DNA of 63,658 nt, filler included, from Rhabdomonas costata (lineage: Eukaryota), in NCBI GenBank assembly GCA_019059605.1. It is 48 parts of 48 records of this genome, joined end to end, with 100 filler letters (N's around TTAATTAATTAA, not from the genome) between each part and the next. Parts side by side here need not be neighbours in the genome. Positions count along the whole stretch, not along the records: positions 55,800 to 57,026 come from JAHMHO010022834.1; positions 57,127 to 58,350 come from JAHMHO010022835.1; 46 more parts are not named here. The stretch is one strand, 5' to 3'. The notes beneath the pieces were generated by a model. It did not search any database and was not told where the DNA came from. It was given only the letters and a program-made list of their open reading frames with translations. The position numbers were made by a program, and so were the translations under genes. Positions 27,818 through 58,450 of this stretch are shown here, piece by piece (position 1 is the stretch's first letter; every line of letters begins with the position of its first letter).

Positions 27818-28709
27818 AGTTTCATGGTGAACATCACNNNNNNNNNNNNNNNNNNNNNNNNNNNNNNNNNNNNNNNNNNNNTTAATTAATTAANNNNNNN
27901 NNNNNNNNNNNNNNNNNNNNNNNNNNNNNNNNNNNNNGGGGGTGTGGAAATCAGGTTGCTCAAAGCTTCCGCTTGAGTGCCTCTGCTCCTAAAAATATCT
28001 TTCGGAAACCTCTCCTTTGAGAAACCTGATTTCCACACTTGCTTCTCCACTGGCCTTTGCTCTGCACCACTGCCTTCTCCCAAAAGCTGTCCTTACAAAC
28101 TGCCTGCTTCTAACTCGCTTTTTCTACTGCCCTCGCACAGATTTACGAATTTCTTGAACAACTTCAAAGCCTCAACTTATCTCTGCTCTTGAAACGAACT
28201 CCTCTGAGCTCATTAACAACTTCTGAGACTAATCAAGCTACTACGCTACTACTAAAATCTTGTCTGGCTCACCAAGCTGTCTCTTTTATTTTATATCACA
28301 AAACGTTCTTCCAACGTATGCTTAGCCGTTACACCATCCCATGCTAGGACGGAGGATGCACTTCTGCCACCAACGTACGATCATTCCAACGGCGTAGCTC
28401 TTCTTGCTGAATGATTCTTACCACAAGAAAGCTTCATTTTATACGATTCAAACTTTCGTTCTCTTTACCAAAAGCATTCGCACTGGAGAAACAACACAGC
28501 ACTCCACCTCCACAACAACTTTGTTCACCGCTCAAAGTCCCGCGGCGATCACACCAACGACAAAGAACGTAGCTCATTAGCGAAAGTACTCTCTGCTGCT
28601 CGACCTGAAAGGTAACAACACACAGCAACAAAGACAACTCAAATCAGCTCTTCGTCAAACACTACGAAATCTTCTGCTATCCAATACGAAGCTCTACGAA
28701 GTTCCTTCT

Positions 28710-56440: not shown

Positions 56441-57128
56441 GAGCACAACATTTTGTGGAGATTGGATAAGCTGAGAGTTGATGGAAACTTTCAGTTTTTC
56501 GTGCCTCAGTTCACACTGGGAGCCAAGCTACTGAGAGGTTGTCCTTTTGTTCATGATTTACACTTGAGGTACCTTTTCATTCAAGGATTTGAGACAGACA
56601 TGCAGGCAGAGCTGATGACGAAAAGCTTTTGAGTTTGCAGGAAAACGTTGACGCAGCATGGGAGTTCCACAGGAAACTCAGAGCGCCACCCAAGGTCATT
56701 GTTGTCGCGCCGCCAGCAGAGAAAGCGACAGCGAAAACTACAGGAATGGAGCTGGATTCCATGAAATATGGCACCTAGCCGTTTGGAGGGAGCTTTACTT
56801 TAACCAACCGTCTGCTCGAATTCAATCACACGGTTCAGAGAGTGCGTGTGTGGTCGTTGCAAGCTCGAGGGGCCTGAGTGGGATGTCGGTTGACGGGGGT
56901 TGGGACGCCATGACGTCAGGAACTTTGCTGCGGGAGATTGCGTCGCCGCCCAGAGGGGTGCTGTTTGTGGAACGTGGAGAGGCGCAAGCCAACGCCGTTA
57001 GGACACCGTCACATAGACCACACACANNNNNNNNNNNNNNNNNNNNNNNNNNNNNNNNNNNNNNNNNNNNTTAATTAATTAANNNNNNNNNNNNNNNNNN
57101 NNNNNNNNNNNNNNNNNNNNNNNNNNTA

Positions 57129-57359
57129 ATTAATGGTTCGGGAATTAAATATCATACATCTGGTGCTTCTTCAGGGTGTGGTATAGGTCAAAAGATAGCA
57201 TCCTCAATTGTTAGAAATGCAGGACATGCTATCGTTAACAAAATCACCGATTCTATAGGCGGAAATGGAATAAAAATAACAGGAGAAGGACATAAACGAA
57301 AACAAGGAAGACCAACAAAAACCAATGCTGCAGCTTATAAACGTAGACATAAGAAATAA
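57129..57359 (+). CDS. 5'-truncated basic Gly-rich protein; putative virion core/protease substrate
   Basis: Manual translation INGSGIKYHTSGASSGCGIGQKIASSIVRNAGHAIVNKITDSIGGNGIKITGEGHKRKQGRPTKTNAAAYKRRHKK*. It is absent from the ORF track. Confidence 0.65.
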   Translation: MNGSGIKYHTSGASSGCGIGQKIASSIVRNAGHAIVNKITDSIGGNGIKITGEGHKRKQGRPTKTNAAAYKRRHKK

Positions 57360-57365
57360 GTTAAC

Positions 57366-57401
57366 ATAATTAATTAGATTAACAATAATCTTATTAATTA
57401 T
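57366..57401 (+). terminator. AT-rich intergenic hairpin (16-bp stem with 1 mismatch, ACAA loop)
   Basis: ataattaattagatta-acaa-taatcttattaattat starts 7 nt after the stop of the upstream ORF. Confidence 0.45.
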
Positions 57402-57406
57402 TAGTA

Positions 57407-57847
57407 ATGAACAAATATAAGGTGCTCAAAGAGTTTCAAGAAAACCTAGTGTACATTGAAGACATCCTAACTACAAATAGTACAGATAATATACAATTGA
57501 ATAAATTATGCACATATTTATTCGGAACTGACGCGTTTAAGGGTGTATATCCATGTGACAAAATGCCCATACTCAAGAACAATGAGATGTGCATTATAAA
57601 TACAGATAATAAAAAAGGCATTCATTGGATTGCTTGCTACAAATACAAAAATAAAACATATGTCTATGATTCATTTGATCGCAATGTAACATCATTATCT
57701 CCATACTGGAAAAATAAGCACAATTGGGTAAATGCTAATTCAGATCGTGATCAGAGCTATGCATCCAGTATATGCGGTCAATTATGCTGTGCTTGGCTCA
57801 TAAGTGCACAAAAATATACACCAATAAAAATTATGAATATTATTTAG
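57407..57847 (+). CDS. Adenain-like (clan CE) cysteine maturation protease, 146 aa
   Basis: FKGVYPCDKMP, IINTD...GIHW (His), VYDSF (Asp) and Q...SSICGQLC (oxyanion Gln, catalytic Cys) occur in the canonical order. Confidence 0.9.
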   Translation: MNKYKVLKEFQENLVYIEDILTTNSTDNIQLNKLCTYLFGTDAFKGVYPCDKMPILKNNEMCIINTDNKKGIHWIACYKYKNKTYVYDSFDRNVTSLSPYWKNKHNWVNANSDRDQSYASSICGQLCCAWLISAQKYTPIKIMNII

Positions 57848-57876
57848 AGAAATTAAAATATATAGTTTTATTAATG
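57841..57876 (+). promoter_or_regulatory. Conserved pre-ATG motif, copy 1 (copy 2 at 58290-58325)
   Basis: tatttagagaaattaaaatatatagttttattaATG versus tatttagataaataaaatatatagttttattaaATG. Confidence 0.6.
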
Positions 57877-58280
57877 ACAATAACATCTGCTGATACTAAA
57901 GAATTCATACGGGAAAATTACCCCCATAAATGCTTGTGGCGTGATGAAAAGAACCAATACAATCAGCGAAATAAGTATTATGACAAAATATGCAACAAAC
58001 GATATTCTGTGAATGTAAATAGTGACGTTTATAGTATTGTTTGGAAAAAAGATAAGATCGTGGATGATAAATTTAATTACGTTTACGACAATATAACTTT
58101 GCGTTATTATTTTAAAGATGACTTCTTCTATTACAATTTAGTTTTACACCAATTCATGGTTGGAAAAAAAATATAGAAACCCGTGAACGACTTGAAAAAT
58201 TAAATCAAGCCAAACATGATTTTATGAAAAGTCTGAACATATGTGATGATGTTAGACGACATATTTATTCATTCTTATAA
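57874..58280 (+). CDS. Hypothetical viral protein (ATG 57874, stop 58176; -1 frame continues to 58280)
   Basis: Starts directly after the conserved motif. An A8 run at 58164-58171 precedes the stop, and the -1 frame reads IETRERLEKLNQAKHDFMKSLNICDDVRRHIYSFL*. Confidence 0.55.
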
Positions 58281-58450
58281 TTGAAAGTTTATTTAGATAA
58301 ATAAAATATATAGTTTTATTAAATGTTCTATATCTTGGTTGGAAAGAAAANNNNNNNNNNNNNNNNNNNNNNNNNNNNNNNNNNNNNNNNNNNNTTAATT
58401 AATTAANNNNNNNNNNNNNNNNNNNNNNNNNNNNNNNNNNNNNNNNNNNN

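Follow-up and report, generated by a model that had tools for sequence, protein, structure and literature searches.

Polintons, Polinton-like viruses (PLVs) and virophages are common residents of protist genomes, and some of them serve as inducible defences against giant viruses; in virophages, as in adenoviruses, a protease of the adenain type is the virion maturation enzyme. Earlier work has shown that elements of the Polinton type are widespread in assemblies of protists and that short contigs often carry them (PMC10120064). Here we analyse a 1224-bp contig of the Rhabdomonas costata assembly GCA_019059605.1, which we read, with a probability of roughly 0.85, as a fragment of the morphogenetic module of an AT-rich double-stranded DNA virus of about 19 kb with a double jelly-roll (DJR) capsid and the Polinton/Maverick gene configuration. 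The contig occupies exactly positions 57127-58350 of a 63,658-nt stretch (hereafter the window) that is made of 48 separate, unrelated contigs of 1221-1282 bp joined by spacers of the form N44-TTAATTAATTAA-N44, and coordinates without a prefix are positions in the window. So far the lineage has been seen only in environmental metagenomes, and the host of the virus is unproven. Papers are cited by PubMed Central number.

Among the closest described systems, mavirus and the endogenous mavirus-like elements (EMALEs) of Cafeteria combine a protein-primed family B DNA polymerase (pPolB), an rve integrase, an adenain-type protease and a DJR major capsid protein (MCP) on about 19 kb of about 30% GC, with a TCTA-type motif upstream of genes (PMC8547959). 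All of these features recur, the polymerase as a candidate, in L003, a 19,042-bp metagenome contig (28-33% GC) that carries a homologue of the protease described below and whose Polinton/Maverick gene configuration is common to mavirus too (PMC7805220). Mavirus and the EMALEs differ from L003 in their MCP, for which no sequence similarity was detected, and in terminal inverted repeats, none of which were seen on L003. PLVs of the Gossevirus (GKS1) group are described with the complete set of virophage core genes, a cysteine protease among them, and with a Sputnik-like MCP model; some members carry pPolB and RVE, and they come from lakes, oomycetes and chrysophytes (PMC10120064, PMC7805220). 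L003 may be likened to them in that the best BFVD match of its MCP is of the Sputnik type and its relatives are from environmental metagenomes.

For the protease itself the reference is adenain (MEROPS C5; PDB 1avp, 1nln, 4ekf). The focal protease has the adenain catalytic order His, Asp/Glu, Gln, Cys, its best sequence-profile and fold matches are adenain and adintovirus adenain, and, through its relatives, it belongs like adenain to the morphogenetic module of a DJR-capsid virus.

A compact adenain-type protease

The identification starts from one open reading frame (ORF):

57407-57847, + strand: adenain-type cysteine protease, 146 aa (conservation, profile and fold model)

Its catalytic residues are H73 (57623-57625), D88 (57668-57670), Q116 (57752-57754) and C123 (57773-57775), in the order His-Asp-Gln-Cys. 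Across an alignment of 104 homologues N65, H73, W74, D88, R92 and C123 never vary, and at least 90% of the sequences keep Q116 and G124, so that the intact signature pointed out by a first-pass annotation of the sequence is a conserved one. Relatives of the protease at 45-73% identity occur in metagenome contigs only; 48 proteins share 49-73% identity with it (48 of the 50 candidates scored), nearly all of about 145 aa and all from such contigs, and a 50%-identity library holds 1166 representative clusters at E ≤ 1e-3. Peptidase_C5 was matched in Pfam at E ≤ 0.01 by 13 of 21 close relatives (best E 1.6e-6).

Detection of adenain in the PDB by sequence needed a profile of all 104 sequences. Searches with phmmer, using the focal protease, and with a 21-sequence profile returned only ferritin and macro-domain noise (E ≥ 0.03), while the 104-sequence profile placed adenovirus protease first (1avp, E 2.1e-6; 4wx4/4piq, 8.7e-6), with the His, Glu/Asp, Gln and Cys positions coinciding in the 1avp alignment; SENP8 (8e-4) and pS273R of African swine fever virus (ASFV; 6e-3) followed lower. 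The AlphaFold2 model (predicted local distance difference test, pLDDT, 94.7; predicted template modelling score, pTM, 0.91) retrieved adenovirus proteases at all of ranks 1-6 in a Foldseek search of the PDB (query-normalised TM-score 0.56-0.61). Against BFVD the top match was an adintovirus adenain (E 1.2e-6), with Sputnik V9 at 1.7e-3 and with Tetraselmis virus 1, bat mastadenovirus and 'MELD virus' protease among the other matches listed. The neighbour clusters of the protease in the ESM Atlas are viral and carry PF00770. The focal enzyme is shorter than adenovirus protease (146 aa versus about 200 aa; target-normalised TM-score 0.42-0.48) and shares 17-25% identity with adenovirus and adintovirus proteases in structural alignments.

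Clan CE proteins share their fold, and the ORF could in principle be a cellular gene of the Ulp1/SENP type or an effector of this clan from a contaminating bacterium: SseL, NopD and Den1/SENP8 take ranks 7-17 in the fold search, and SENP8 appears in the profile search as given above. However, adenovirus proteases rank above these in both searches, Pfam assigns Peptidase_C5 and not C48, the genomic context in the relatives is viral, and the four ORFs of the contig have no significant match in PHROGs (best E 0.39 and 0.021), which together make such an origin extremely unlikely. Because conservation, the 104-sequence profile, the fold model and the Atlas neighbours agree, we assign 57407-57847 to a compact adenain-type (clan CE, family C5-like) protease rather than to an Ulp/SENP protein or a bacterial effector, and the profile and structure searches run on this ORF thus bear out its first-pass assignment. 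By analogy with adenoviruses and virophages, the enzyme would act in capsid maturation.

A 19-kb relative with a Polinton-type gene set

Nineteen related loci were confirmed in Joint Genome Institute (JGI) metagenomes, out of 192 pattern matches, and the homology extends to the gene that precedes the protease:

57129-57359, + strand: 3′ part of p83, a small Gly-rich protein with a basic C-terminus, 76 codons plus stop (5′-truncated ORF; tblastn homologues)

Homologues of p83 lie directly 5′ of the protease at 10 loci (tblastn, E ≤ 5e-9). The truncated focal p83 is 49% identical to the 83-aa p83 of L003 (E 8e-18), which, used as the query, matches 11 loci and the focal contig. The gene order MCP-p83-protease is found at 9 loci, and its p83-protease part also on the focal contig. 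Its trinucleotide profile places the focal contig close to L003 (distance 0.13) and far from the other 47 contigs of the window (0.66 from their mean; their own range is 0.09-0.37). As the first-pass annotation had it, this contig is far more AT-rich than the rest (29.4% GC versus 42.4-58.4% across the other 47) and densely packed, with four ORFs, every one on the + strand, that cover about 91% of it and require no intron.

The nature of the virus can be read from L003. Its 550-aa ORF (model pLDDT 72) is a DJR MCP by two independent structure comparisons. Of these, the BFVD search returned 84 matches at E ≤ 1e-3, mostly capsids, the best being a Sputnik-type virophage capsid (E 6.8e-14) and other top matches being adomavirus LO7, a Qinghai Lake virophage MCP and an adintovirus protein; VIA-align against 48,161 PDB representatives gave Z-scores of 21.7 for Paramecium bursaria chlorella virus 1 (PBCV-1), 18.8 for Sputnik and 17.3 for mavirus. 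An rve integrase (PF00665, E 2e-12; its 47.7 bits exceed the cut-off of 32.6) is present in L003 only and not on the focal contig, and further Pfam domains of L003 are an HNH endonuclease, a papain-like Peptidase_C1 and a phospholipase A2 (PLA2)-like domain.

Sequence relationships suggest that the 1376-aa protein of L003 is a candidate pPolB. Its ESM Atlas neighbours (score 0.97) carry DNA_pol_B_2 and Endonuclease_7, with PF03175 in 19-47% of their members, and, like Maverick/Polinton polymerases, derive for the most part from genomes of arthropods; the strings YLDANNLY and FSDTDS, which are DxxSLYP-like and YxDTDS-like, are visible by eye. Neither Pfam nor PHROGs detected a polymerase in this ORF. 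A candidate ATPase (L003:5862-6533, 223 aa) shows a Walker A motif by eye and a weak PHROG terminase match (E 8.8e-4), and PDB sequence searches with the 328-aa and 264-aa ORFs of L003 found nothing. The first-pass identification of a Polinton-like virus or virophage fragment is upheld by the synteny with this 19-kb contig, with its DJR MCP, rve integrase and pPolB candidate.

Giant viruses (Nucleocytoviricota) also have AT-rich genomes and encode clan CE proteases, and a fragment of one, or of a giant endogenous viral element (GEVE), would be in keeping with the low GC and dense co-oriented ORFs of the focal contig and with the weaker structural matches of the protease, which include Tetraselmis virus 1, an Aureococcus virus and moumouvirus. 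Yet small-virus synteny is common to all 19 related loci, the only long relative is a 19-kb contig with a pPolB candidate and rve and without core genes of the nucleocytoplasmic large DNA viruses, and the focal protease has 146 aa where the giant-virus matches have 209-297 aa. We consider a giant-virus origin highly improbable.

p83, a candidate protease substrate

The focal p83 contains the motifs INGSG, IGGNG and ITGEG followed by a basic tail with GRP. Across 11 aligned p83 proteins conservation is highest at the glycines of three (I/L/M/V)xGxG motifs, which are invariant or nearly so, and a Lys/Arg-rich GRP tail comes after these motifs. Three motifs in the focal fragment compare with 0.49 expected from composition shuffles (P 0.0066), and p83 has the highest motif density among 18 L003 proteins, while the end of the L003 MCP is without a Gly-rich basic tail. 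The adenain cleavage consensus is (M/I/L)XGX-G (hyphens here and below mark the cut), and the motifs of p83 are of this type; its GRP repeats we take to be AT-hook-like.

Mavirus offers a parallel. Its protease is packaged and cuts the basic C-terminal domain of the MCP at GG-X and GX-G, more efficiently after assembly, and MV13 is probably cut as well (PMC6048507). These cuts in a basic segment parallel the GxG motifs of p83, but the segment in mavirus is a domain of the MCP, whereas here it is a separate gene, p83, with an upstream motif of its own. By analogy with adenovirus and mavirus, we propose that the focal protease would be packaged and would cut virion precursors after or within Gly-x-Gly once the capsid is assembled. 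The most likely substrate would be p83: cuts at the three (I/L/M/V)xGxG sites would free its C-terminal end, a very basic, GRP-rich peptide that may be able to bind the AT-rich genome. Such a peptide would have a role akin to that of adenovirus core-protein precursors or, in mavirus, of the processed basic domain at the C-terminus of the MCP. Judged from sequence, we give even odds to the proposal that the neighbouring protease cuts p83, as a precursor, to yield a basic peptide that binds the genome. Structure prediction of a protease-p83 complex scored 0.00, which speaks neither for nor against binding.

Promoter-like motifs

The remaining features of the focal contig are:

57366-57401, no strand: AT-rich palindrome, 16-nt arms and 4-nt loop (inverted repeat I3, 94% complementary)
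57840-57874, + strand: direct repeat copy 1, about 35 nt, TTATTTAGAnAAATnAAAATATATAGTTTTATTAA, promoter-like (repeats D1, D2)
57874-58280, + strand: gene of two frames, p108-like at its C-terminus (ORF lists; C-terminal homology)
58289-58322, + strand: direct repeat copy 2, promoter-like, TATAG at -14 (D1, 96% identical; D2, 89%)
58323-58350, + strand: further ORF, first 9 codons (MFYILVGKK), cut by the contig end (ORF list; repeat D3)

Within about 30 nt of the protease ATG, 12 of 16 loci of relatives carry TCTA. In an alignment of 13 upstream sequences all share TCT, followed by A in 12 of them and by T in the focal contig: its TCTT (57389-57392) stands at -18 from the protease ATG, in the 3′ arm of the palindrome, which itself sits inside the 47-nt spacer between p83 and the protease. 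Similar motifs recur across L003. At -25 to -4 from the start codon, TCTA precedes 8 of its 19 genes (2.3 expected), TCT[ACT] precedes 14 (4.3 expected) and TATAG precedes 7 (0.87 expected), counts that none of 2000 shuffles reached in any of the three cases. The element AAAATGTATAG, which is similar to the direct repeat of the focal contig, lies 5′ of the homologous L003 gene 5509-5835.

The focal palindrome is predicted to fold as RNA at -9.5 kcal/mol (z -3.96), and at 5 of 6 loci the conserved palindrome folds better than shuffles (z -3.0 to -5.6); an equally possible role for it is that of a site for protein binding or of a hairpin at the end of the transcript. We propose that short AT-rich promoters would drive these genes, a TCTA-type one (TCTT here) in the palindrome before the protease and the TATAG-containing 35-nt repeat before the two downstream genes. 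AT-flanked TCTA is the mavirus promoter and the late promoter of Cafeteria roenbergensis virus (CroV) (PMC8547959), and by that analogy the TCTA-type motifs hint at, but do not prove, a virophage-like dependence on a mimivirid.

Downstream genes and other genes of the relatives

The two genes downstream of the protease share the upstream repeat of about 35 nt at 89-96% identity. Its first copy ends at the ATG of the next gene and has TATAG at -13. That gene runs through two frames, the first at 57874-58176 (100 aa and a stop codon) and the second at 58122-58280, with a one-base offset at an A8 run (58164-58171). Over its C-terminal 32 aa the product matches the end of the 108-aa L003 ORF 5509-5835 at 62.5% identity (E 7e-9), and a search with ORF 57865-58173, which covers the N-terminal part, found no homologues. 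The last 18 nt of the contig (58333-58350) repeat 58154-58171 at 89% identity (D3); the ORF at 58323 is, on this sequence likeness, probably a tandem paralogue of the preceding gene, and the assembly probably broke inside this paralogue.

In the relatives, a second, papain-like protease (Peptidase_C1, E 7e-8) lies at L003:10379-11125, just 3′ of the adenain gene, and is absent from that place in the focal contig; it occurs at the equivalent site in 10 other loci (L001, L002, L004, L008, L010, L011, L012, L014 and L016 being those named). L003:4754-5479 encodes a 241-aa protein with a PLA2-like domain (PF08398, E 2.1e-8), a type best known from parvovirus capsid proteins, and with (I)xGxG motifs in two places, IYGSG (residue 9) and ISGKG (residue 214); from its sequence it could be a membrane-active virion protein processed by the protease. 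On the - strand, L003:153-3890 encodes a 1245-aa Ser/Thr/Asn-rich protein with internal repeats (D1, D2) that looks like a fibre or spike and matches five PHROG families lacking known function (best E 2.1e-20). At L018:107-992 the protease and the end of the MCP each align as two pieces in different frames, and this copy looks degraded or mis-assembled.

Weighing and classification

A number of results weigh against our reading of the focal contig as part of a DJR-capsid virus with the Polinton/Maverick configuration. The contig itself carries no capsid, ATPase, polymerase or integrase gene, and its identity as a virus comes from homology and synteny with L003 at only about 64% protein identity. 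Taken alone, the focal protease scores 18.9 bits (E 1.3e-3) against a curated cut-off of 21.3 for Pfam PF00770 (Peptidase_C5). The genes 3′ of it are unlike those of all 12 relatives that have downstream sequence, which carry the 72-aa gene p72 and/or the papain-like protease. Cleavage of p83 is deduced from motifs only, and covariation in the palindrome was not above that of shuffled controls. In the focal copy TCTT stands in place of the TCTA core and the frame of one gene is broken; because of these two features, the copy may be decaying or the assembly in error.

The wider searches add to this side of the balance. None of 45 pattern matches in IMG/VR was confirmed by protease alignment and none of 39 by alignment with the L003 MCP; tblastn against GenBank phage and virophage records found no match for the L003 MCP or the 1376-aa pPolB candidate; and sequence searches of the PDB with the L003 MCP and a 23-sequence profile found no Sputnik (3j26) or mavirus (6g45) MCP at E ≤ 10. 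Neither the ATPase candidate nor the 264-aa penton candidate of L003 has a Pfam match, and the penton candidate has none in PHROGs or the PDB either. No terminal inverted repeats were found at the ends of L003, a contig that may be incomplete or circularly permuted, and the focal contig contains no end of the element.

How narrowly the lineage can be placed is a related matter. A virophage in the strict sense (Maveriviricetes, mavirus-like), dependent on a CroV-like giant virus, would agree with the gene set of L003 (pPolB, rve, protease, ATPase and MCP, the first and fourth as candidates), its 19 kb and its roughly 30% GC, all of which fit the description of mavirus (PMC8547959), the known range of virophages being 15-30 kb and 27-51% GC (PMC8547959; PMC7805220). 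The enrichment of the TCTA promoter-like motif in L003 and the Sputnik-type best BFVD match of its MCP model (E 6.8e-14) fit as well. However, membership in Maveriviricetes is defined by virophage-type MCP, ATPase and protease detected with marker hidden Markov models (HMMs), true virophages typically reaching at least 100 bits (PMC9952930), and the PDB sequence searches that recovered no Sputnik or mavirus MCP, which are a proxy and not the marker HMMs, point away from it. The structural Z-scores of the L003 MCP are no better for virophage MCPs than for PBCV-1, faustovirus or ASFV capsids, the protease model has its closer counterpart in adintovirus adenain (1.2e-6), with Sputnik V9 behind at 1.7e-3, and protease-bearing PLVs with a Sputnik-like MCP model (the Gossevirus group) have been described outside Maveriviricetes (PMC10120064). 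A strict virophage is therefore unlikely. Since the MCP has no Sputnik or mavirus sequence match, the protease is nearer to adintovirus and similar PLV groups have been described, we file the lineage at the level of the supergroup, as a Polinton-type virus within the Polinton/PLV/virophage assemblage.

Provenance and host

Two matches characterise the neighbours of the focal contig in the window:

443-994, - strand: dynein heavy-chain N-terminal exon (DHC_N1, E 4.8e-41)
10006-10575, - strand: reverse-transcriptase fragment (RVT_1, E 7.4e-10)

On these matches the neighbouring contigs resemble eukaryotic nuclear DNA, and the assembly would be that of a eukaryote with retroelements. Several window contigs also contain microsatellite-like runs with translations such as THTHTH or SLTHSLTH, and an Rfam scan of the whole window gave 0 matches. 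A stretch of 27 residues at 28228-28299, on a contig of 46% GC, resembles the L003 ATPase candidate (48% identity, E 0.005); the likeness probably reflects a generic P-loop rather than another piece of viral DNA.

The viral fragment could belong to an endogenous provirus, perhaps in decay, that sits in the nuclear genome of the eukaryote sequenced, a provenance compatible with the Polinton-type reading given above. The relatives encode an rve integrase; elements of this kind are reported to be frequent as endogenous viruses of protists and often to assemble as separate short, GC-deviant contigs, 17% of MCP hits being on contigs of less than 1.6 kb (PMC10120064); the frame break at the A8 run and the change of the conserved TCTA to TCTT would suit decay; and the focal contig is as short as its 47 neighbours, which fits a similarly low coverage and not a high-titre free virus. 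Against this, the contig holds no host junction, terminal inverted repeat or target-site duplication, the L003 genes match none of the other 47 contigs of the window, so that no other window contig has related genes, and a frame break in a homopolymer can be an assembly error. The nearest relatives, moreover, are from environmental metagenomes, so the lineage also exists outside the sequenced organism. Several of these points would fit exogenous DNA, whether of a free virus or of some other organism in the sample. Integration is accordingly a tentative reading, somewhat short of even odds. Of the first-pass interpretation as a whole, the adenain-type protease and the fragment of a small DJR-capsid virus stand, and its euglenid or flagellate host and its endogeny are without support here.

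A literature search on euglenids, with the host tables of PMC10120064 outside its reach, returned no report of a polinton-like or virophage element, and the available text of a GEVE study in Euglena refers to virophage and polinton proteins only as part of its search database. A more specific scenario would make the virus a resident, integrase-bearing Polinton-type virophage of a flagellate, possibly a euglenid, tied by its TCTA motifs to a CroV-like mimivirid of the same host and with p83 split off from the capsid protein; in this full form it is quite unlikely. If it were true, the placing of p83 as a separate gene beside the protease would give the maturation module a new arrangement.

Significance

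The contig adds a divergent member, which shares no more than 73% protein identity with any entry of the searched collections, and its relatives show a lineage with what looks like the full Polinton configuration, TCTA-type promoter motifs and a separately encoded candidate protease substrate. If it is integrated in the sequenced organism, it would speak of past or present interactions between giant viruses and virophages in that host, a conclusion that a fragment so short and of such uncertain provenance cannot carry. The most useful leads that it offers for the biology of this family are the idea that p83 may be a substrate of the neighbouring protease and the TCTA-type sequences as possible promoters.

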